A DNA stretch of 59,364 nucleotides, the filler included. It is 4 parts of 4 records of this genome, joined end to end, with 100 filler letters (N's around TTAATTAATTAA, not from the genome) between each part and the next. Parts side by side here need not be neighbours in the genome. Positions count along the whole stretch, not along the records: positions 1 to 30,508 come from DRR723986_5536; 3 more parts are not named here. One strand, written 5' to 3'. The translations under genes and the position numbers were made by a program. The notes beneath the pieces were generated by a model. The model was not told the origin of the DNA. It made no database searches and saw only the letters and a program-made list of their open reading frames with translations. Within the stretch, counting starts at the first letter, position 1, and every line of letters begins with the position of its first letter. Positions 1-9,851 of this stretch are shown here, in pieces.

Positions 1-783
1 AACATCCAGAAGGACGGCACCTATTCGGTGGTCCCGCGCATGTGGGGCGGGATGACCTCGTCCAAGGAACTGCGGGCGATTGCCGATGTGGTCGACAAGT
101 TCAACATTCCGGCGGTGAAATGCACCGGTGGCCAGCGCATCGACATGCTTGGCATCAGGAAGGAAGACCTGCCGGCAGTCTGGGCGGACCTCGGCAAGGC
201 CGGGTTCGTTTCCGGGCAGGCCTACGCCAAGGGTCTCAGGACCGTGAAGACCTGCGTCGGCACGGACTGGTGCCGGTTCGGCACGCAGGATTCCACCGGT
301 CTCGGCATCAAGCTGGAAAAGTTCATGTGGGGCTCATGGACCCCGGCGAAGTTGAAGATGGCGGTGTCCGGCTGCCCGCGAAACTGCGCGGAAGCAACTT
401 GCAAGGATATCGGCATCATCTGCGTCGACAGCGGTTACGAGATCCATTTCGCCGGAGCTGCCGGTCTCGACATCAAGGGCACGGAAGTTCTGGGCCTGGT
501 GAAGACCGAGGACGAGGCGATCGAGCATGTTGCTGCGCTCACCCAGATGTACCGCGAGCAGGGCCACTACCTGGAGCGGATCTACAAGTGGGCAAAACGC
601 ATAGGTCTGGAGGAGATCCGTCGCCAGATCATGGACGATGAGGCGATGCGCGTGGCGTATTTTGACCGTTTCGTCTTCTCCCAGAAATTCGCCCAGGTCG
701 ACCCATGGTCGGAGCGTGTCTCCGGCAAGGACAAGCATGAATTCAAGCCGATGGCTGTTCTGACGAAGGAGGCTGCCGAATGA
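1..783 (+). CDS. nirB: NAD(P)H-dependent assimilatory nitrite reductase large subunit, C-terminal part (5' truncated by window)
   Basis: Frame is open from base 1 (NIQKDGTYSVVPR). Siroheme/[4Fe-4S] ligand motifs KTCVGTDWCRFG and SGCPRNC are present. ATGA overlap with nirD. Confidence 0.95.
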   Translation, partial: NIQKDGTYSVVPRMWGGMTSSKELRAIADVVDKFNIPAVKCTGGQRIDMLGIRKEDLPAVWADLGKAGFVSGQAYAKGLRTVKTCVGTDWCRFGTQDSTGLGIKLEKFMWGSWTPAKLKMAVSGCPRNCAEATCKDIGIICVDSGYEIHFAGAAGLDIKGTEVLGLVKTEDEAIEHVAALTQMYREQGHYLERIYKWAKRIGLEEIRRQIMDDEAMRVAYFDRFVFSQKFAQVDPWSERVSGKDKHEFKPMAVLTKEAAE

Positions 784-1121
784 CTGCCGACATCCGTAAC
801 TGGGTCCATATCGGCACCCTTGAAGACATTCCCAGGGAGGGAGCGCGGTGCGTGAAGAATGGCGAAATGACCATCGCCATCTTCCGCACCGCCAAGGACG
901 ACGTCTTTGCGCTGGAAGACAAGTGCCCGCACAAGAACGGGCCTCTCAGTCAGGGCATTGTGCATGACGGATGTGTGACCTGCCCGTTGCACAACTGGGT
1001 GATCTCCCTGGAAACGGGAGCCGCGCAAGGAGCTGACGAAGGCCGCACGGCAGCTTTTCCCGTCCGGCTGGAGGACGGCCGGATTCTTATCGACCTTTCC
1101 TATTCCCACGAAGCCGTCTGA
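780..1121 (+). CDS. nirD: Nitrite reductase small subunit (Rieske-type ferredoxin)
   Basis: Rieske motifs CPHKNG and CPLHNW; directly follows nirB. Confidence 0.93.
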   Translation: MTADIRNWVHIGTLEDIPREGARCVKNGEMTIAIFRTAKDDVFALEDKCPHKNGPLSQGIVHDGCVTCPLHNWVISLETGAAQGADEGRTAAFPVRLEDGRILIDLSYSHEAV

Positions 1122-1152
1122 CCGGCCGAGCACTCTCGCGAAAGGAATTCAG

Positions 1153-1998
1153 ATGTCATATGTAACGCCACAGGAATTTGCCACCAAGATGATCGACGCC
1201 GGTGAAGCGAAGATCTTCATGTCCACAAAGGACACGCTCATCCGGGCCTATATGGCAGGCGCCATCCTTGCCCTTGCAGCCGCCTTCGCCGTGACCATCG
1301 CCGTCAATACCGGCAATTTCCTGGTCGCCTCGATCCTGTTCCCGGTCGGCTTCTGCATGCTCTATCTGCTGGGCTTCGACCTTCTGACGGGCGTGTTCAC
1401 GCTGGCGCCGCTGGCGGTGATCGCTAAACGTCCGGGCTGCACCTGGGGCGGTGTGTTCCGGAACTGGGGCCTGGTCTTTACCGGCAACTTTGCAGGTGCC
1501 CTGACCACGGCGGTCTTCATGGCGATCATCTTCACCATGGGTTTCAGCCAGGAACCGAACGCCGTCGGTCAGAAGATTGGCCAGATCGGTGAAACCCGGA
1601 CGCTCGGCTATGCCGCCGCCGGCTGGGCGGGGCTGCTGACGGTCTTCATTCGCGCAGTGATGTGCAACTGGATGGTTTCGACCGGTGTCGTGGCCGCGAT
1701 GATGTCGAACTCTGTTTCCGGCAAGATCATGGCGATGTGGATGCCGATCCTGGTGTTCTTCTATCTCGGCTTCGAGCACTCCATCGTGAACATGTTCCTG
1801 TTCCCGTCCGGCATCATGCTCGGCGGCAACTTCACCTGGTTCGACTACTTTGCCTACAACGAAATTCCGGTTGTTGTCGGCAATCTGGTCGGCGGGCTGA
1901 CCTTCGTCGGCGGCATGATCTACGCCACCCACTACAAGACGTCGCCATCCCGAAAGGCAGGCTACGAAAAGGCGCCGATCGCAGCGCCAGCCGAATAA
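1153..1998 (+). CDS. Formate/nitrite transporter (FNT) family channel, probably for nitrite and/or cyanate
   Basis: Hydrophobic 281-aa protein with FNT signatures (LFPVGF, DLLTG, CNWMV, GFEHSIVNM, GNLVGG). RBS AAGGA upstream. Confidence 0.92.
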   Translation: MSYVTPQEFATKMIDAGEAKIFMSTKDTLIRAYMAGAILALAAAFAVTIAVNTGNFLVASILFPVGFCMLYLLGFDLLTGVFTLAPLAVIAKRPGCTWGGVFRNWGLVFTGNFAGALTTAVFMAIIFTMGFSQEPNAVGQKIGQIGETRTLGYAAAGWAGLLTVFIRAVMCNWMVSTGVVAAMMSNSVSGKIMAMWMPILVFFYLGFEHSIVNMFLFPSGIMLGGNFTWFDYFAYNEIPVVVGNLVGGLTFVGGMIYATHYKTSPSRKAGYEKAPIAAPAE

Positions 1999-2005
1999 GT
2001 GTGAA

Positions 2006-2037
2006 GCTCCGCCGTCACTGGCGGCGGAGCGTCTTTT
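2006..2037 (+). terminator. Stem-loop with short T tract inside the nas cluster
   Basis: GCTCCGCCGTC-act-GGCGGCGGAGC followed by gtctttt. Confidence 0.5.
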
Positions 2038-2055
2038 CCGGAGGATCCTTTTCCC

Positions 2056-3795
2056 GTGCTGATGCAAGTCCGCCATACCACCTTGAGCGTCGAAACCGGC
2101 CAGTATTCGTCTGCCGGACGGAAAGCCCTGAACCAGGACTTTCATGGCGCCATGGTGCCGGACGGCCCGGCCCTGGTGCACAAGGGCATCGCACTTGCTG
2201 TCGCGGACGGCATTTCCTCCAGTCCGGTTGCGCATGTCGCAGCCGAAACGGCCGTCAAATCCTTTCTCTCCGATTACTATTGCACCTCTGAAGCCTGGAC
2301 AGTGAAGACCTCTGCCGTCCGGGTGATCTCTGCCGCCAATTCCTGGCTTTTCAGCCAGACGAAACAGGTCGACGATCTCGACAGGGGCCATGTCTGCACC
2401 TTTTCTGCCCTGGTGCTGAAGGGGCGCAAGGCACATCTCTTCCACGTCGGTGACAGCCGCATCTGGCGTCTTTCCGGCCAGAGCCTGGAACAGCTGACGG
2501 AAGACCACACTGTCCGGATTTCCGATCAGGAGAGTTATCTCGGCAGGGCTCTGGGGGTCGGGCAATCTGTCGATATCGATTATGCCGTGTTCGATCTTCG
2601 TCCGGGCGATCTGTTTGTCCTGACGACGGATGGCGTCCATGGCTTCTTGCGGGCGAAGGACATGGCCGACGCCGTGCTGGCTGGCGAAGTTCTCGACCAG
2701 ACAGCCAGGACACTTGTCGAAAAGGCGCTGGCTGCAGGCAGCGACGATAATCTGACCGTTCAGATCGTGCGGGTGATCGACATCGCGGAACCCGGTGCAG
2801 ATGATCTCCTGAACGGGGAAGGCACCTTGCCACCGGCGCCGCTGCCGAAGGTGCCTGGCACCCATGAGGGGTTCCGTTTGATGCGCGGCCTGCACGCCAC
2901 CAGCCGCAGCCACATCTATCTGGCGGAAAATGAAGAAACCGGCGAACCGGTGGCGCTCAAGTTTCCGTCGCTCGATTTGCGCGGAGAGGAAGACTATCTG
3001 CGCCGGTTCGCGCTGGAGGAGTGGGTTGCACGCCGGATTTCATCGCCGCATGTGTTGAAGGCTTCCACCTATCCGCAGGGCCGTCAGACGCTTTTTCTGG
3101 CATCGGAGTTTGTCGAAGGCCAGACGCTTCGCCAGTGGATGATCGACAATCCTCACCCCAGCCTTGAGACCGTGCGCGGGGTTCTGGAGCAGGTGGCCAG
3201 GGGATTGATGGCCTTCCACCGCAAGGAAATGGTCCATCAGGACCTGCGGCCGGAAAACATCATGATCGACACGTCCGGCACGGTGAAAATCATCGATTTC
3301 GGGTCGGTGCGGATCGCCGGCGTGATGGAAGCCGCTCCTTCGCTCGACAAGGGTGAGATCCTGGGCACCCACCAATATACCGCGCCAGAGGTGTTTCTCG
3401 GCTACCTCGGGACTGAGTACAGCGACCAGTTTTCGCTTGGTGTGATTGCCTACGAAATGCTGACCGGGCGTTTGCCCTATGGTGCGGCCGTTGCCAGGGC
3501 AACGAGTGAGCGGGCACAGGCTGCACTGCGCTATCGCAGTGCGACAGCTGTCACGGAACGGGTTCCGGACTGGGTCGATGGTGCGCTTTGCCGCGCGGTT
3601 CATCCAGTGCCGGGCAAGCGCTACGAAGCGCTGAGCGCCTTCCTGGAAGATCTTCGCCGCCCGAACCCGGCCTTCAGTTCAGATCGTTTTGTTCCTCTGG
3701 CGGAACGGGATCCGGTCCGTTTCTGGCAGATCGTCTCTGCTGTTCTCGCGGTGCTCTGCGCCATCCTCTTGTTTCAACTCTTCGGTAATTCATAG
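2056..3795 (+). CDS. Bifunctional PP2C-type phosphatase / Hanks-type Ser/Thr kinase with C-terminal membrane anchor
   Basis: PP2C motifs VADG, HVGDSR, LTEDH, LTTDG, GSDDNLT. Kinase motifs VALK, HQDLRPEN, DFG, YTAPE, SDQFSLG. Terminal hydrophobic helix FWQIVSAVLAVLCAILLFQLF. Confidence 0.93.
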   Translation: MLMQVRHTTLSVETGQYSSAGRKALNQDFHGAMVPDGPALVHKGIALAVADGISSSPVAHVAAETAVKSFLSDYYCTSEAWTVKTSAVRVISAANSWLFSQTKQVDDLDRGHVCTFSALVLKGRKAHLFHVGDSRIWRLSGQSLEQLTEDHTVRISDQESYLGRALGVGQSVDIDYAVFDLRPGDLFVLTTDGVHGFLRAKDMADAVLAGEVLDQTARTLVEKALAAGSDDNLTVQIVRVIDIAEPGADDLLNGEGTLPPAPLPKVPGTHEGFRLMRGLHATSRSHIYLAENEETGEPVALKFPSLDLRGEEDYLRRFALEEWVARRISSPHVLKASTYPQGRQTLFLASEFVEGQTLRQWMIDNPHPSLETVRGVLEQVARGLMAFHRKEMVHQDLRPENIMIDTSGTVKIIDFGSVRIAGVMEAAPSLDKGEILGTHQYTAPEVFLGYLGTEYSDQFSLGVIAYEMLTGRLPYGAAVARATSERAQAALRYRSATAVTERVPDWVDGALCRAVHPVPGKRYEALSAFLEDLRRPNPAFSSDRFVPLAERDPVRFWQIVSAVLAVLCAILLFQLFGNS

Positions 3796-3804
3796 GAGAT
3801 TTTC

Positions 3805-4254
3805 ATGTCCGCTCTTACCCGCGAAGACGTTACCAGCATGATCCTGTCGGCGAAGCGCCAGGCGGGGCTCACATGGGAAGGCATTGCCGAAGCGATCGGC
3901 ATGTCGCCTGTCTGGACCCATTCGGCGGCCATGGGCATGAACGCCATGCCGGAAGACAAGGCAAAGGCAATCACGGAGACACTCGGTCTGCCGCAGGAAG
4001 CGGCTCTGGTACTGCAGGAGAGCCCCACAAAGATCTGGTCGCAGACCGTGCCGACGGATCCGTGCATCTACCGTCTTTATGAAATCGTCGGCGTCTACGG
4101 ACCGACAATCAAGGCTTTGATCCATGAGAAATTCGGCGACGGCATCATGTCCGCCATCGATTTCGACATGTCGGTAACCCGTGTTGAGAACCCCAAGGGA
4201 GACCGGGTGAAAATCGAGATGTCGGGCAAATACCTTGGCTACAACGCCTGGTAA
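3805..4254 (+). CDS. cynS: Cyanate hydratase (cyanase)
   Basis: PTDPCIYRLYE and GDGIMSAIDF cyanase motifs, N-terminal HTH-like region, RBS AGGAG. Confidence 0.96.
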   Translation: MSALTREDVTSMILSAKRQAGLTWEGIAEAIGMSPVWTHSAAMGMNAMPEDKAKAITETLGLPQEAALVLQESPTKIWSQTVPTDPCIYRLYEIVGVYGPTIKALIHEKFGDGIMSAIDFDMSVTRVENPKGDRVKIEMSGKYLGYNAW

Positions 4255-4276
4255 ATCAAGAACCGGGATTGATGGC

Positions 4277-6958
4277 ATGACCGAACAAGAAAAAACAATC
4301 CGGACCACCTGTCCCTATTGCGGTGTCGGCTGCGGCGTCCTCGCGACCCGGCATCCGGACGGGACGGTGACTGTTGCAGGTGACCCCAACCACCCATCCA
4401 ATTTCGGCCGGCTGTGTTCCAAGGGGTCGGCCCTTGGAGAAACGCTTTCGCTGGATGACAGACTGCTCTATCCGGAAATCGACGGCGAACGCGCCAACTG
4501 GAATGACGCGCTCGATCTTGTCGCGCGCAACTTTCAGGATGCCATTCGGGAACATGGACCAGATAGCGTTGCGTTTTATGTGTCCGGCCAAATCCTGACC
4601 GAAGACTATTACGTCGCCAACAAACTGATGAAAGGGTTCATCGGTTCGGCGAATATCGACACCAATTCCCGTCTTTGCATGGCATCTTCCGTTGCCGGGC
4701 ACCGCAGGGCATTCGGCTCGGACACGGTTCCGGGAACCTATGAAGATCTTGAACTGGCAGACCTTGTTGTGCTGGTCGGCTCCAATCTCGCCTGGTGTCA
4801 TCCGGTCCTGTTCCAGCGTCTCGAAGCGGCCAAGGCTGCCAACCCGGCGTTGCGGGTGGTCGTAGTGGACCCGCGCAAGACAGCGACCTGCGCCATCGCC
4901 GATCTGCACCTGCAATTGAAACCTGATACGGACGTTGCCCTCTTTAACGGGCTGCTCGCCTTTCTGGCGGAAGCGTTTGTCGTGAATGACAGCTATGTCA
5001 ATCGCTTTACTCAAGGACTTGAGAAGGCAGTTGAGGTTGCAGGGCCCTGCGAGATCGGCCAGATCGCCGAAAAGACCGGCCTGTCACGTCAGGATATCGC
5101 ACTCTTCTACAAGATGTTTGCCCGGACGGAAAAGACGGTCACCGTCTATAGCCAGGGTGTCAACCAGTCGGTCGTCGGGACTGACAAGGTCAATTCCATC
5201 GTTAACACACATCTGGCAACTGGACGGATCGGAAAGCCCGGCATGGGCCCTTTTTCCGTCACGGGTCAGCCGAACGCCATGGGCGGCCGGGAAGTCGGCG
5301 GACTGGCCAATATGCTCGCCGGTCACATGGCTTTGGAAAATGCCGAGCACCGCGGGATCGTGCAGGACTTCTGGCAAAGCCCGGTCGTGGCTGATCGGTC
5401 CGGCTTGAAAGCTGTTGAGCTTTTCAAGGCCGTGCGGGAAGGCCGGATCAAGGCGCTCTGGATCATGGCGACAAGCCCGGTGGACAGCCTGCCGGATGCA
5501 GATGGCGTGGCAGAAGCCCTGGAAGCATGTCCCTTTGTTGTCGTTTCGGAAGTAACGCGGGCAGCCGACACGGTTCCCTATGCGAACGTGTTGCTGCCTG
5601 CAGCCGCATGGGGTGAAAAAGACGGGACGGTTACCAACTCCGAGCGCCGGATCTCAAGACAGCGCGCCTTCCTGGAGCTTCCCGGTGAGGTTCGCCCCGA
5701 CTGGTGGCACCTGAGCGAAGTCGCAAGGCGCATGGGCTTTGCCGGGGCCTTTTCCTATGAAGGGGCTGCGGCGATTTTCCGTGAGCATGCGGAGCTTTCC
5801 GGTTATCGGAACGAAGGCAGCCGGGATTTCAATATTGGTGCTTACCGGGACGTGTCCGATGCCGATTTCGATGCCATGGAACCCTTTCAGTGGCCGCAGC
5901 CGGCGGGGGCACTACCAGCTGATACGAGGTTCTTTGCCGGAGGAGGGTTTTTTACCGAAAGCGGCAAGGGGCAGTTCGTGCCGGTCGTTTTCAAGGCACC
6001 GCGGCAAACAGAGCGCCGCTATCCGTTCTCCCTGAATACGGGCCGAATCCGCGATCAGTGGCACACCATGACGCGCACCGGCAAGACGCCGCGCCTTACC
6101 GCGCATATTGCCGAACCTTTTGCCGAACTCAACCCGATCGATGCTGAAAAGCTCGGGATCGACCCGGCAGATCTGGTGACGGTGAAAAGCCCATTTGGGG
6201 CCGTAATTGTGCGGGCGTTACTGACAGACCGGGTCGCCCCGGGAGAAGTCTTCGTGCCCATGCATTGGACCGACCAGCTTGCATCGAAAGCTCGCATCGA
6301 TGCGGTCATGGCGCCCGAGACAGACCCCCATTCCGGACAACCAGGATCCAAGTTCACGCCTGTGGCTGTGGCAAAAGCGAAAATGGCCTGGTTCGGTTTT
6401 GCCGTCTTGCGCCAGCGACCGGAGAAGATCGCTGCCGACTACTGGGCCCTTGCTCCTGTTCCTGGCGGTTACCGGCTTGAGTTCGCGGCGAAATCAGATG
6501 CCGATTTCGCGGAAACCGCAGCTACGTTGACCTCGTCCAGCAACGAGACGACCGATATATCGGACGGTGCCGCTGGCTGGAGACGTTTGGCTGAGTGGCG
6601 GGACGATGTGCTGCAGGCAGCGTTCTTCTTTTCCGCATCCCCGGTGGAAGTTTCGCGCCAATGGGCTTGTGGGCTGCTGGGTGAGGGGCCCGTTTCGCCG
6701 CAGGAGCGGGCACGGGTTCTTGCCGGACGGGTGCCGGCAGACAGGCCTGATCCGGGAGCACTGGTCTGCTCCTGCTTCCAGATCGGCTGCAACCAGATTG
6801 CCGAAGCCGCACGCTGCGGTGCGACAAGTGTAGGTGCAATCGGTGAAACACTGAAAGCCGGCACGAATTGCGGCTCCTGCCGCTCGGAAATCCAGACGCT
6901 TCTCGATGAAATTGCAAAGGAAAGCCTCGATGATGCCGACATTGCGCAAGCCAGCTGA
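4277..6958 (+). CDS. nasA: Assimilatory nitrate reductase catalytic subunit (Mo-bisPGD)
   Basis: N-terminal CPYCGVGC...LC [4Fe-4S] motif, NSRLCM, GQPNAMGGRE, LNTGRIRDQWHTM, and a C-terminal BFD-like CSC...CGSC. Start moved to the ATG at 4277. Confidence 0.95.
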   Translation: MTEQEKTIRTTCPYCGVGCGVLATRHPDGTVTVAGDPNHPSNFGRLCSKGSALGETLSLDDRLLYPEIDGERANWNDALDLVARNFQDAIREHGPDSVAFYVSGQILTEDYYVANKLMKGFIGSANIDTNSRLCMASSVAGHRRAFGSDTVPGTYEDLELADLVVLVGSNLAWCHPVLFQRLEAAKAANPALRVVVVDPRKTATCAIADLHLQLKPDTDVALFNGLLAFLAEAFVVNDSYVNRFTQGLEKAVEVAGPCEIGQIAEKTGLSRQDIALFYKMFARTEKTVTVYSQGVNQSVVGTDKVNSIVNTHLATGRIGKPGMGPFSVTGQPNAMGGREVGGLANMLAGHMALENAEHRGIVQDFWQSPVVADRSGLKAVELFKAVREGRIKALWIMATSPVDSLPDADGVAEALEACPFVVVSEVTRAADTVPYANVLLPAAAWGEKDGTVTNSERRISRQRAFLELPGEVRPDWWHLSEVARRMGFAGAFSYEGAAAIFREHAELSGYRNEGSRDFNIGAYRDVSDADFDAMEPFQWPQPAGALPADTRFFAGGGFFTESGKGQFVPVVFKAPRQTERRYPFSLNTGRIRDQWHTMTRTGKTPRLTAHIAEPFAELNPIDAEKLGIDPADLVTVKSPFGAVIVRALLTDRVAPGEVFVPMHWTDQLASKARIDAVMAPETDPHSGQPGSKFTPVAVAKAKMAWFGFAVLRQRPEKIAADYWALAPVPGGYRLEFAAKSDADFAETAATLTSSSNETTDISDGAAGWRRLAEWRDDVLQAAFFFSASPVEVSRQWACGLLGEGPVSPQERARVLAGRVPADRPDPGALVCSCFQIGCNQIAEAARCGATSVGAIGETLKAGTNCGSCRSEIQTLLDEIAKESLDDADIAQAS

Positions 6959-8477
6959 GGTAAAGCGCCGGAGCCGTCCGGCACGCGTGGGGGCTCTTGC
7001 AAGCCTGCCGCTGTTCTTTCCGCTTGAAGGAAGAAAAGTCCTGCTGGCAGGCGGCACGGAAGCTGCCGCCTGGAAGGCGGAGCTGCTGGCTGCTGCCGGG
7101 GCAGACGTGCATGTTCATGCACAGGAGCTGGAGCCGGCTTTCGAGGCACTTCTTGCGGCCGGCAGCATCAAGGGGCGTTTCATACATCACCGGTCCTGCT
7201 GGTCGCAGCAAGGCTTCGAGGGCGCAGCCCTTGCGATTGCCGATGCAGAGAGTGACGAAGAAGCAGAAGCGTTTGTTTTGGCCGCGCGGCGCACGGGAGT
7301 TCCGGTCAATGTGATCGATAACCCCGCCTATTGCGACTTCCAGTTCGGGTCCATCGTCAACCGGTCACCGGTCGTGATCGGAATCTCGACCAATGGGGTC
7401 GCGCCGATCCTTGGCCAGGCGATCCGACGGCGGATCGAGACGCTGATGCCTGAAAGTCTGCAAGGATGGGCGCAGCTGGCAAGCCGTTTGCGGGAAAAGA
7501 CGCTTTCCCTGCTGGACGCAGGGGCACAGCGGCGCCGGTTCTGGGAGCGGATCTCCGAACTTGCCTTCTCGGGCAGTTCGGCGCCTGAAGAGGAAGAACA
7601 TCTCGCCGAAGTACTTCTGGAGGACGCGAGGACGTCTGCTGCAGGCAAAGTCACCCTTGTGGGTGCAGGGCCGGGCGATGCCGAATATCTGACACTGAAA
7701 GCCGTGCGTGCGCTGCAATCGGCTGATGTCATCCTCTTCGATGATCTGGTCGATGACGCGGTTCTCGAACTTGCGCGTCGAGAAGCCAGGCGGATGCTGG
7801 TCGGAAAAAGAGGCGGTCGGGAAAGTTGCCGCCAGGAAGACATCAACGACATGATGGTTTCGCTGGCACGTCAGGGCAGACACGTGGTGCGGCTCAAATG
7901 CGGAGATCCGATGATCTTCGGTCGTGGTGGTGAGGAGCTCGACCGTCTTGCTGCCGAAGGCATCCCGGCAACCGTTGTTCCCGGCATCACTGCGGCTTCT
8001 GCCATGGCGGCACGCCTGGGCGTTTCCCTGACGCACCGTGACCATGCTCAGTCGGTCAGGTTCGTCACTGGCCACTCGCGCAAGGGAGATTTGCCGGAAA
8101 CCGTAGATTGGGCTGCGCTCACCGACCCAGCCACCACGACCGTTTTCTACATGGGGGCGCGCATGGCCGGCCGTATCAGAGACCGGCTTGTTGCCGAGGG
8201 TTTGTCCGCAACGACCCCCGTCGTTGCCGTTTCGGGAATATCCCGCACCGACGAAAAGAGTTGGTCGGGAACACTGGACGAACTTGAACGCGGTGTCGAT
8301 TTGCTCGGACTGGAAGGTCCGGTCCTCATCGGAGTGGGGCAGGTCTTCCGGGCAGCAGGCCGTCAGGCCGGGCAAGGTGAAGGATTTGAATTCCATCAGG
8401 TCTTCTCTGTGCGAGGGGAAATAGCCGGAGCTGAAAATCGAGGCATTCGGACACTTGGCAAATCTGCAGCTATTTGA
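6930..8477 (+). CDS. cysG: Siroheme synthase (dehydrogenase/ferrochelatase + uroporphyrinogen-III methyltransferase)
   Basis: N-terminal LPLF...VNVIDNP...DF domain plus methyltransferase motifs VGAGPGD, LKCGDPMIFGRGGEE, VPGITAA. Start uncertain (6906/6930/6933). Confidence 0.93.
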   Translation: MMPTLRKPAEVKRRSRPARVGALASLPLFFPLEGRKVLLAGGTEAAAWKAELLAAAGADVHVHAQELEPAFEALLAAGSIKGRFIHHRSCWSQQGFEGAALAIADAESDEEAEAFVLAARRTGVPVNVIDNPAYCDFQFGSIVNRSPVVIGISTNGVAPILGQAIRRRIETLMPESLQGWAQLASRLREKTLSLLDAGAQRRRFWERISELAFSGSSAPEEEEHLAEVLLEDARTSAAGKVTLVGAGPGDAEYLTLKAVRALQSADVILFDDLVDDAVLELARREARRMLVGKRGGRESCRQEDINDMMVSLARQGRHVVRLKCGDPMIFGRGGEELDRLAAEGIPATVVPGITAASAMAARLGVSLTHRDHAQSVRFVTGHSRKGDLPETVDWAALTDPATTTVFYMGARMAGRIRDRLVAEGLSATTPVVAVSGISRTDEKSWSGTLDELERGVDLLGLEGPVLIGVGQVFRAAGRQAGQGEGFEFHQVFSVRGEIAGAENRGIRTLGKSAAI

Positions 8478-8517
8478 TTTGTTTGAGCGGCAAATCAGCT
8501 GGTGATCCGAAGCACTG

Positions 8518-9207
8518 ATGAATCGTTCCGAACAAATTTGCGCAGCCCTGCGCAGTGCCATCCTTGAGCGTGCCCTGTTACCGGGCATGAAACTGCCGGA
8601 AGATTCGCTGGGTGAGCGTTTCGGGTCGAGCCGGACGATCGTGCGCCAGGCACTGGAACGGCTCGCAGCGGAAGGCCTTGTCGAACTGCGGCGGAACAGG
8701 GGAGCCGTTGTCGCAACCCCCAGCCTGGAAGAGGCGCGGGATCTGTTTGATCTGCGATGCCAGATCGAAGACCTCGTGGTGTCCCGGCTGAGCGCTGAAT
8801 TCTCCCAGAAGCACCTTGATGCGCTGAATGCGCATCTCGACAAGGAAATTGCCGCTGAAAAGGGACCTGAGCCTGTCTCCATCCGGCTTGCCACGGAATT
8901 CCACATTCTCATGGCGCAGCTCACGGAAAGTCCGGTTCTGATCCGCTACGTGGAAGACGTCGGCTATAGATGCGGGTTGACGCTGGCGCTTTACTCGCGG
9001 CCGCATTCCACTGATTGCGGGATCCAGGAGCACCGGGAAATTATTGATGCTCTTTCCAAGGGCGATGAGGATCGGGCCAGGGATCTCATGCGACACCACC
9101 TGGGGGCCGTGGCTGACCGGGCGCTGATCAAGCCCGAAAACAAGGGGCAGGGCATCTATCTCGATGCCCTGGAACCTTATGTTCGCGCCGTTCGAGGAGA
9201 CGACTAG
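8518..9207 (+). CDS. GntR family (FCD domain) transcriptional regulator
   Basis: wHTH LPEDSLGERFGSSRTIVRQAL and FCD motifs EFH, EHREII, MRHHL. Confidence 0.92.
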   Translation: MNRSEQICAALRSAILERALLPGMKLPEDSLGERFGSSRTIVRQALERLAAEGLVELRRNRGAVVATPSLEEARDLFDLRCQIEDLVVSRLSAEFSQKHLDALNAHLDKEIAAEKGPEPVSIRLATEFHILMAQLTESPVLIRYVEDVGYRCGLTLALYSRPHSTDCGIQEHREIIDALSKGDEDRARDLMRHHLGAVADRALIKPENKGQGIYLDALEPYVRAVRGDD

Positions 9208-9617
9208 GCTTCAATGCCCATGCGGGTGAGAATTCGCTCCGCGCTGTCGTTCCAGACATCCATCTTTGTGATCTTGCCGTCATGCACTTCGAACCGATCG
9301 ACATACCGGTTGCCTTCGAAGGCGGTTCCGTCCGGCCATTCACCGTAAAGCGTCCCGACAGAGTAGACGACAACCCCTTCCGCCCCGCGGGCAACGTCGA
9401 AACGGTCCATCTTTTTCTTCACCCAGTTGTACCGCTTCGCGTTAAAGCCGGTCGGACCTGAGGGATGGTTGAATACCCGTCCGCCCGTAAACGTGATCGT
9501 CACATCGTCGGCAACGTATGTCGCAGCGAGATCCGGATCGGGTTTCATGGAAGCGTCGAGATATTCCCTGACGATCTGCGCTTCCTCGGGAAGAGTGTCT
9601 TTGTTTTCGTCCTGCAT
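9204..9617 (-). CDS. SnoaL-like / NTF2-fold protein
   Basis: 137 aa; GTLYGEWPDGTAFEGNRYVDRFEVHDGKITKMDVWND is a typical NTF2-like C-terminus. RBS AAGGA. Confidence 0.85.
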   Translation of the reverse strand: MQDENKDTLPEEAQIVREYLDASMKPDPDLAATYVADDVTITFTGGRVFNHPSGPTGFNAKRYNWVKKKMDRFDVARGAEGVVVYSVGTLYGEWPDGTAFEGNRYVDRFEVHDGKITKMDVWNDSAERILTRMGIEA

Positions 9618-9668
9618 GGGGCGTCCTTTTCAAAATGGCCTTCTGGAGCATAAATCCTGTCCGGTTTT

Positions 9669-9704
9669 TTGCATGCAAGTTTTGTATGCAAAGATTGCAT
9701 GCAA
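9669..9704. promoter_or_regulatory. Three tandem palindromic boxes (TTGCATGCAA, TTGTATGCAA, TTGCATGCAA), candidate GntR operators
   Basis: Boxes start at 9669, 9682 and 9695 (exact 13-bp period) in the divergent SnoaL/ABC intergenic region. Confidence 0.7.
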
Positions 9705-9851
9705 TTTAAGCGAAATTCTGATGTCATCGAAGGTCTGTAAAGGCCGAAATTGGGTAAGTAATTGAAATGTATAGCGATCAGTGAACTGGCATCTGACTTG
9801 CTCTTGAAATGGCGTTCGGACGTGTCGTCCGGAAAACCAGAGGAGCCGTTC

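Follow-up and report, generated by a model that had tools for sequence, protein, structure and literature searches.

The window analysed here is a stretch of 59,364 nucleotides (nt) made up of parts of four records of one genome, the first of which (positions 1 to 30,508) comes from DRR723986_5536. At 2056..3795 on the plus strand it contains a gene in which a predicted phosphatase of the PP2C type and a predicted Ser/Thr protein kinase are joined in one polypeptide (hereafter the fusion). A survey of gene neighbourhoods shows that the constant neighbour of this gene is a gene for a transporter of the FNT or the NarK type, and not nirBD or nasA. In the window this neighbour encodes an FNT-family anion channel of 281 amino acids (AA) and lies directly upstream of the fusion at 1153..1998 (plus strand; Form_Nir_trans, E-value 2.8e-60, 204 bits against a cutoff of 34.6). 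The fusion gene starts with GTG at 2056, its stop codon ends at 3795, and it codes for 579 AA plus the stop. A GGAGG is found about 10 nt 5' of the GTG, and the start GTG-CTG-ATG is kept among relatives from Roseibium.

The remaining genes of the cluster are encoded on the plus strand as well. The C-terminal part of nirB, the gene for the large subunit of assimilatory nitrite reductase, is found at 28..783 and extends past the window's 5' boundary (Pfam NIR_SIR and NIR_SIR_ferr; TIGR02374, profile positions 562-790). It is followed by nirD for the small, Rieske-type nitrite reductase subunit (780..1121; Pfam Rieske_2; TIGR02378, 103 bits against a cutoff of 74.65). Downstream of the fusion are cynS for cyanase (3805..4254; Pfam Cyanate_lyase and CYNS_N; NF002773, 200.6 bits against 150), the gene for an assimilatory nitrate reductase catalytic subunit of the nasA/nasC type (4235..6958; Pfam Molybdopterin, Molydop_binding, Molybdop_Fe4S4 and Fer2_BFD), and cysG for siroheme synthase (6906..8477; NF007922, 553 bits against 400). 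The best NCBIfam matches of the nitrate reductase include the models NasC and NasA, both under cutoff. The order is nirB-nirD-FNT-fusion-cynS-nasA-cysG, so that the fusion is co-oriented between the FNT gene and cynS, as an earlier reading made from the letters of the window (the sequence-only reading) had described.

What is understood of nitrate and nitrite assimilation in Proteobacteria is its transcriptional control, by NtrBC and by NasST or NasR. Going by the names of its closest homologues, the window belongs to Roseibium (formerly Labrenzia). The sequence-only reading had named NasST as part of the usual control, and in the nearest genome examined, which carries a 99% identical fusion, nasT (receiver and ANTAR domains), nasS, nrtA, nrtB and a fused nrtCD are indeed located directly upstream of nirB. 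Since NasST genes are present in the cluster of this relative, the fusion would be an extra layer of control and not a replacement.

Between the FNT stop codon and the start of the fusion, an 11-bp G+C-rich stem-loop followed by a weak T tract was found at 2006..2030 (plus strand). It is the strongest terminator-like site within positions 1-9800, and the centroid of its fold has an energy of -22.7 kcal/mol. Roseibium relatives retain the stem, with both arms altered, and do not retain the T tract. Rather than terminating transcription completely, this structure may reduce or stabilise the expression of the genes that follow. A promoter scan returned two σ70-like sites at an expectation of 2.3, and Rfam at gathering thresholds gave no match anywhere in the window. 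Contigs from RNA libraries of four studies span the locus in close relatives, and one contig per study bridges the junction of FNT and kinase gene. Such contigs do not prove one transcript and the libraries possibly contain DNA, hence they are only compatible with co-transcription of the two genes.

Domain architecture and family membership

The phosphatase domain of the PP2C (PPM) type comprises approximately residues 20-243 (2113..2784, plus strand). Pfam PP2C_2 was matched by residues 20-202 with an E-value of 1.6e-14 (54.4 bits against a cutoff of 24), and the assignment is also based on the NCBIfam profile Stp1_PP2C, invariant aspartates and Foldseek. The Ser/Thr protein kinase domain comprises approximately residues 271-535 (2866..3660, plus strand). 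Here, Pfam Pkinase was matched by residues 285-525 (E-value 8.9e-35, 120.8 bits against 31.7), and a phmmer search aligned residues 271-534 with the kinase domain of Staphylococcus aureus PknB/Stk1 (E-value 2.5e-29); Foldseek and invariant residues point to the same fold. The Stp1_PP2C profile aligns to residues 24-238 with 106 bits at a cutoff of 230, and the Stk1 kinase profile NF033483 aligns to residues 285-535, i.e., to the kinase domain only, with 154 bits at a cutoff of 450. These two models are the best NCBIfam matches of the fusion; as both scores are far under their cutoffs, it is neither an Stk1 nor an Stp1 equivalog.

The C-terminus (approximately residues 548-577; 3697..3786, plus strand) carries a juxtamembrane motif, E-R-x-P-x-x-F-W, and a membrane anchor, identified by hydropathy and as a helix in the AlphaFold2 model. 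The only strongly hydrophobic window of 19 residues in the whole protein is 559-577 (Kyte-Doolittle 2.6). The AlphaFold2 model, computed with 76 sequences, has a mean pLDDT (predicted local distance difference test) of 89.8 and a pTM (predicted template modelling score) of 0.83, and its terminal helix extends from 553 to 577. About 3 residues remain beyond the helix, which bears out the statement of the sequence-only reading that there is almost no periplasmic part; its description of a single chain with PP2C domain, kinase domain and one C-terminal transmembrane helix was likewise confirmed by Pfam, hydropathy and the model. In Foldseek searches the kinase half resembles PknB (template modelling score 0.87) and the phosphatase half PstP, Streptococcus agalactiae STP, PppA and tPphA (about 0.8; PstP and STP about 0.83); no solved chain spanning both halves was among the matches. 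Neither Pfam nor the AlphaFold2 model gave a recognisable sensor domain in the 579 AA. The layout is general in the family: the most hydrophobic window is found within the last 45 residues in 112 of 116 members, and the median tail behind it is 1-3 residues in the main family groups. The juxtamembrane residues P553 and W557 are invariant in the FNT-linked clade described below, and in the sample of relatives linked to MFS transporters the proline is present in 36/40 and the tryptophan in 34/40. By these features the fusion is predicted to be a tail-anchored bifunctional enzyme with all of its catalytic mass facing the cytoplasm.

The best 120 homologues listed have a length of 547-606 AA and are 56-98% identical to the fusion over at least 94% of the query; all of them contain PP2C_2 and Pkinase, and many carry the NCBI name 'bifunctional protein-serine/threonine kinase/phosphatase'. 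One protein with this family name, from Roseibium sp., is 87% identical over 100% of the query. Judged by sequence, the fusion is a member of this already named and widespread family. For the search in genomes, a full-length match with an E-value ≤ 1e-40 was required; this threshold is specific to the fusion because other Hanks kinases of the nearest genome reach only about 1e-15. Full-length matches were found in 112 of 401 sampled genomes of Pseudomonadota at 29-99% identity, several genomes having two copies. The gene itself is unsurprising to a specialist, but the family is common, and what is now sharply defined is its partner. A full-text search of the open literature returned no experimental study of the fusion family. 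The remark in the sequence-only reading that PP2C-kinase fusions have no established substrate agrees with this search, in which none was found. Pseudomonas aeruginosa PA1782 is presumably a further member. In the parts of two publications that refer to it, PA1782 is listed merely as a predicted Ser/Thr kinase (PMC11197903, PMC8560001).

Gene neighbourhoods of the family

For the neighbourhood survey, all open reading frames of at least 100 AA around the kinase gene were clustered and one representative of each cluster occurring in at least 3 loci was searched with Pfam; clusters in fewer than 3 loci were left unannotated, hence, rare neighbours are missed. Three samples with 135 loci in all were used, 131 of which were informative. 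Sample 1 consists of the 79 closest loci (44-91% identity) from Alpha-, Beta- and Gammaproteobacteria and Campylobacterota, sample 2 of 40 loci at 29-40% identity from the search of 401 genomes, and sample 3 of 16 loci at 40-49% identity. An FNT or NarK-type transporter gene was found beside the fusion gene in 124 of the 131 informative loci. This agrees with the claim of the sequence-only reading, made there for nir/nas genes, that such fusions recur beside genes for nitrogen oxyanions.

In sample 1, the FNT gene is upstream on the same strand in 76/79 loci; one locus has a NarK-type gene upstream (L057) and two are cut at a contig end. The upstream FNT gene ends between -30 and +150 nt from the projected kinase start in 73 of the 76 loci, the exceptions being L069 (204 nt), L042 (593 nt, with cynS in between) and L024 (1683 nt). 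Other neighbours are less regular: NirB was found in 55/79 loci, NirD in up to 43/79 (clusters of 26 and 17 loci, which may overlap), CynS in 13/79, a protein of the NrtA/NasS type in 12/79, CysG in 11/79, nitrate reductase in 9/79 and a NasR-type protein in 9/79. Unrelated housekeeping genes follow downstream of the kinase in many loci. Because many FNT-kinase pairs have no nirB within 8 kb, the reductases are disfavoured as the partner of the fusion, and since NirB occurs in no more than 55/79 loci, nirBD or nasA as a constant partner was rejected. The sequence-only reading had expected homologues to be enriched with nirBD, nasA, FNT and NarK alike; in the survey the constant partner is FNT or NarK, and the reductase genes are less regular.

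In sample 2, a NarK-type MFS transporter takes the place of the FNT channel. Such a gene was found in 34/40 loci; one locus has an FNT gene, four have no transporter and one is cut. Two MFS types are involved, one of 424 AA adjoining 24 loci (best NCBIfam match the NarK family, 220 bits against a cutoff of 311.7) and one of 490 AA adjoining 9 loci, which passes the NarK cutoff (328 bits); both types adjoin one further locus. Where a transporter is present, it is at most 550 nt away in 33 of 35 loci, and it is located upstream on the same strand in 25, upstream on the opposite strand in 5 and downstream in convergent orientation in 5. In sample 3, NarK is upstream on the same strand in 12/16 loci, three have no adjacent transporter and one is cut. 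The association was also examined from the side of the channel in the same 401 genomes. Of 39 full-length FNT matches at least 60% identical to the window channel, 37 adjoin a kinase match; in 35 of these the FNT gene precedes the kinase gene in the same orientation, and in 2 the genes are convergent. The remaining two FNT genes have no adjoining kinase gene.

A tree of the window protein and 115 full-length relatives was calculated with FastTree, leaving out the partial sequences of L015, L034, L050 and L059. One clade is made up of the FNT-linked kinases (75 rows, support 98) and a second of the kinases linked to the 424-AA MFS transporter (24 rows, support 100); those linked to the 490-AA NarK transporter form a grade between the two. 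The NarK-linked kinase of L057 branches just outside the FNT clade. The type of neighbour changes four times on the tree compared to a mean of 35 after shuffling. Since kin share their labels, the tree shows that kinase and transporter types stay together, not that they co-evolve.

Four loci of sample 2 (L113, L114, L119 and L121) represent a divergent clade of fusions located between pyrophosphatase and phosphofructokinase genes with no transporter nearby. Four sequences of this sample have lost D28 and D192 of the phosphatase domain and kept the C-terminal anchor; they are probably these same four, as judged from the matching count and not row by row. The pyrophosphatase-linked fusions look like paralogues freed from their original role.

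These loci bear on a reading in which the fusion is a general signalling kinase/phosphatase with targets unrelated to the transport of nitrogen oxyanions, which has merely hitch-hiked in the operon. In its favour, 7 of the 131 informative loci are without a transporter, four of them with the pyrophosphatase and phosphofructokinase genes. Against this, the transporter neighbour is kept in 124/131 loci across four classes while the remaining neighbourhood changes completely, and it comes from one of two transporter families that are unrelated and yet share their substrates. Furthermore, the pyrophosphatase-linked paralogues form a single divergent clade, probably with degenerate PP2C motifs. Hitch-hiking is accordingly very improbable.

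Catalytic residues and the channel

The aspartates D28, D51 (with G52), D133, D192 (with G193) and D231 of the PP2C domain are invariant in 75/75 FNT-linked relatives. In the MFS sample, D28 and D192 are kept in 36/40 sequences, D51 and D133 in 40/40 and D231 in 39/40. These aspartates correspond to the metal-binding residues of the conserved PP2C motifs. In the kinase domain, K302, E321, H394, D396, N401, D414 and A443-P444-E445 are invariant in 75/75 FNT-linked relatives and nearly invariant across the 40 relatives of the MFS sample. The VALK lysine, the DFG aspartate and the ADG/DG aspartates, which the sequence-only reading had proposed for mutation, are real catalytic residues.

Two features of the kinase deviate from the norm. 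The glycine-rich loop GxGxxG, normally needed for holding ATP, is replaced by a conserved R284-S285-H286 in the FNT clade. The fusion reads G-L-H-A-T-S-R-S-H in this region, where the glycine-rich stretch of S. aureus PknB faces H-A-T-S-R-S in the alignment; in MFS-linked relatives the nucleotide-loop region is degenerate. In addition, the catalytic loop of the fusion, HQDLRPEN, is of the non-RD type (the catalytic Asp is preceded by Gln instead of Arg) and has an arginine where lysine is usual. In FNT-linked relatives HQD is found in 66/75 and Arg398 in 73/75, whereas the MFS sample has HRD in 32/40 and the lysine in 35/40. The designation as a Hanks kinase domain in the sequence-only reading stands with respect to K302, E321, D396, N401, D414 and APE, and does not hold for the glycine-rich loop and the RD motif (HQD). 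Between DFG and APE the sole conserved Ser or Thr is Thr438 of the P+1 loop, which fits a kinase that does not need phosphorylation of its activation loop; non-RD kinases in general do not need it, and this is the basis of that suggestion.

The same deviations could mean that the kinase domain is weak or dead, in which case the fusion would mainly be a tethered PP2C phosphatase and the kinase fold a module for binding substrate or nucleotide. The replacement of GxGxxG by R-S-H in the FNT clade, its degeneration in the MFS clades, and in the FNT clade the Gln for the RD Arg and the Arg for the catalytic-loop Lys are what would be expected in this case. Pseudokinases, however, usually lose some catalytic residues, and here K302, E321, H394, D396, N401, D414 and APE are invariant in 75/75 sequences and nearly so in the MFS-linked ones. 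Moreover, the transporter-less paralogues probably did lose PP2C residues, so that decay becomes visible in this family once constraint is lifted. A kinase domain devoid of activity is thus quite unlikely.

The channel encoded upstream of the fusion was compared to its solved relatives. The closest is Chlamydomonas LCIA (9v2a, E-value 2.4e-30), before FocA (1e-14) and NirC (1.7e-7), and the NCBIfam equivalog models of FocA and NirC were not reached. Because LCIA is the closest solved relative by sequence, the kinase-linked bacterial FNT proteins group with the algal NAR1/LCIA type. The central His209 and the loop residue Thr79 are invariant in 77/77 kinase-linked FNT proteins, and the mean column identity of these 77 is 79% compared to 62% for the kinases. 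In the AlphaFold2 model of the channel, an N-terminal cytoplasmic helix (6-21) is separated by a short break from a long helix (25-53). FocA is reportedly regulated through its cytoplasmic N-terminus. With Thr79 and His209, the window channel has conserved residues of the FNT family, and with helix 6-21 a cytoplasmic N-terminal element, although by sequence it is much nearer to the algal LCIA/NAR1 type than to FocA or NirC. We know of no report of FNT phosphorylation.

To find positions specific for the linkage, the 77 kinase-linked FNT proteins were compared with 15 FNT relatives (39-51% identical) not adjoining a kinase gene. At twenty-eight positions the linked set has a fixed residue that the 15 unlinked proteins do not share. 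Four of these positions hold Ser or Thr, and three of the four belong to membrane helices or the pore; the fourth is Thr28, located where helix 25-53 begins on the cytoplasmic side and encoded by the codon at 1234..1236 (plus strand). Position 28 is Thr in 75/77 linked proteins and in 0/15 unlinked ones, which have Leu or Met in 15/15. Owing to this contrast and its cytoplasmic position, Thr28 is a candidate phosphosite, and we infer that it could be phosphorylated. Two FNT copies not linked to a kinase gene (61-62% identical) also keep Thr28, both in genomes carrying an FNT-clade kinase. In one genome (L136, G263:C1, and L156), the FNT-clade kinase follows nasA-cysG and the only close FNT gene, which keeps Thr28, is 158 kb away; this is a natural case of a split FNT-kinase pair.

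Instead of being a substrate, the transporter could be a co-sensor, as it is for known sensor kinases. The fusion would then read the flux through the channel or its conformation and phosphorylate NasT/NasR, PII, NtrC or a reductase subunit. The 579 AA hold no sensor domain, so that the input would come from a partner; tight adjacency to a transporter fits a co-sensor equally well as a substrate, and NasT/NasS or NasR genes occur in many clusters. The second partner is, however, not constant, as within 8 kb some pairs have NasST, others NasR and others neither of the two. A clade-specific cytoplasmic Thr28 is also easier explained by modification of the channel, a point which is not decisive. 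On balance, we regard a co-sensor role of the transporter as unlikely.

A further observation concerns the substrate of the channel. In 13/79 loci of sample 1, cynS directly follows the FNT-kinase pair, several times without nirB nearby (L005, L025, L026, L058, L061 and L070). FNT proteins adjoining cynS are proposed as low-affinity cyanate channels in the passage devoted to them in one publication (PMC10753782). In view of that proposal, the window channel may carry cyanate besides nitrite.

Proposed function and related systems

As the family nearly always adjoins a nitrate/nitrite transporter gene, the fusion probably switches the transporter. We give a slight preference to the reading that it is a built-in writer and eraser which determines whether the co-encoded channel is phosphorylated. 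The C-terminal anchor would hold the fusion at the membrane beside the co-translated channel, the kinase domain would phosphorylate a cytoplasmic site of the FNT protein and the fused PP2C domain would take this mark off again. The balance of the two activities would set the passage of nitrite, perhaps also of cyanate. The best candidate for the site is Thr28, located at the hinge where the amphipathic helix of the N-terminus meets the first long one. Control by the fusion would come on top of transcriptional control by NtrBC and NasST, and would allow fast adjustment of uptake to the nitrogen or redox state. As the fusion lacks a recognisable sensor domain, the input must act directly on one of the two catalytic domains, whether it is a metabolite, a partner protein or the channel's own state. 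A more specific version, in which a constitutively active non-RD kinase and the PP2C domain switch Thr28, or the equivalent site of NarK, and thereby gate the flow of anions within seconds according to nitrogen status, as the hitherto missing rapid control of uptake in heterotrophic Proteobacteria, appears doubtful. The sequence-only reading had proposed a membrane-localised switch acting on a component of nitrate assimilation after translation. Its observation is confirmed, and its interpretation, narrowed to the transporter as the partner, is partly supported.

Several points weigh against the fusion as a switch of its channel. The activities of kinase and phosphatase are inferred from residues alone, and the consensus glycine-loop motif was found in none of the 116 family members examined. 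The membrane helix of the fusion is poorly conserved in sequence and hence probably serves as an anchor and nothing more; specific docking of this helix within the membrane was rejected for this reason. The contrast at Thr28 could be explained by ancestry alone, as the linked FNT proteins are close kin, and Thr28 is just one of 28 positions specific for the linked clade. The 15 FNT proteins used for comparison come from few lineages, and some of them lie in clusters with a NarK-linked kinase. The agreement between clade and neighbour does not prove co-evolution, as adjacent genes share their history. Finally, there are the seven informative loci of 131 without an adjacent transporter (L113, L114, L119, L121, L125, L132 and L136), in one of which the kinase follows nasA-cysG and the FNT gene is 158 kb off.

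Among known systems, the nearest is the family named by the NCBI, called ppkB in Pseudomonas sp. UW4, whose members have the same layout of PP2C domain, kinase domain and C-terminal anchor and the same position beside a transporter gene. The sections of the genome paper of Pseudomonas sp. UW4 dealing with ppkB give the order nasST-nasA-ppkB-nasDEC-cobA (PMC3596284). This published order is matched by the order nasS-nasT-MFS-kinase-nirB-nirD-nasA-cobA of L088, L090 and L091 (PMC3596284). Genomes with a Pseudomonas-like gene order have a full-length relative with about 30-32% identity to the fusion. In contrast to ppkB, the fusion of the window belongs to the FNT-paired and not to the NarK/NasA-paired clade, and has HQD and the arginine for the catalytic-loop lysine. 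The pairs PknB/PstP of Mycobacterium tuberculosis, PrkC/PrpC of Bacillus and Stk1/Stp1 of Gram-positive cocci share the two folds and the chemistry with the fusion, whose best structural matches are PknB, PstP and the S. agalactiae STP, and writer and eraser are encoded together in them, too. They are, however, two separate proteins with extracellular PASTA sensors and a normal glycine-rich loop, whereas the fusion has both activities in one chain and no extracellular part.

Regulation of nitrate transporters by phosphorylation is a possible working analogy. In Arabidopsis (NRT1.1 and NRT2.1) and Hansenula (Ynt1), a kinase sets the activity of the nitrate transporter according to nitrogen supply. 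The UW4 paper, in the sections on ppkB, draws an analogy to nitrate-transporter phosphorylation in these two organisms (PMC3596284), and for Arabidopsis NRT2.1 phosphorylation is described in the relevant part of a preprint (bioRxiv 10.1101/583542). The eukaryotic kinases are unrelated and soluble and have no fused phosphatase, and the bacterial case is so far a proposal. Cyanobacteria offer a functional analogue, i.e., a fast post-translational shut-off of nitrate/nitrite uptake. In the portions of two papers concerned with it, the inhibition of nitrate uptake by ammonium is dependent on PII (PMC6603209, PMC8042125). The mechanism there is binding of a protein to an ABC transporter; neither a Hanks kinase nor an FNT or MFS target takes part.

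Short-term inhibition of nitrate uptake by ammonium is an old physiological observation, and fast adjustment of uptake in Proteobacteria is, to our knowledge, not understood. If the fusion switches its channel as proposed, this would add a post-translational layer to a central part of the nitrogen cycle of soil and marine bacteria and would provide the first substrate for a very common, unstudied bacterial kinase/phosphatase. The more specific version with Thr28, if true, would explain such inhibition outside the cyanobacteria, and we know of no earlier bacterial channel for which gating by a Hanks-type kinase with its own fused eraser has been described. Should the switching of the channel prove wrong, the strict neighbourhood of the family would still need an explanation.

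Two minor observations were made on other genes. Downstream of cysG, the window contains at 8518-15794 genes for a regulator of the GntR/FCD type, for an ABC uptake system resembling Liv/Urt, in which permease and double ATPase are fused in one protein of 839 AA, and for a cytosine-deaminase-type amidohydrolase; these genes are possibly another nitrogen-scavenging unit. In a near-identical relative (locus L083, 13217-15028), both ATPases of the nitrate ABC transporter are fused in a protein of 603 AA with two ABC_tran domains.

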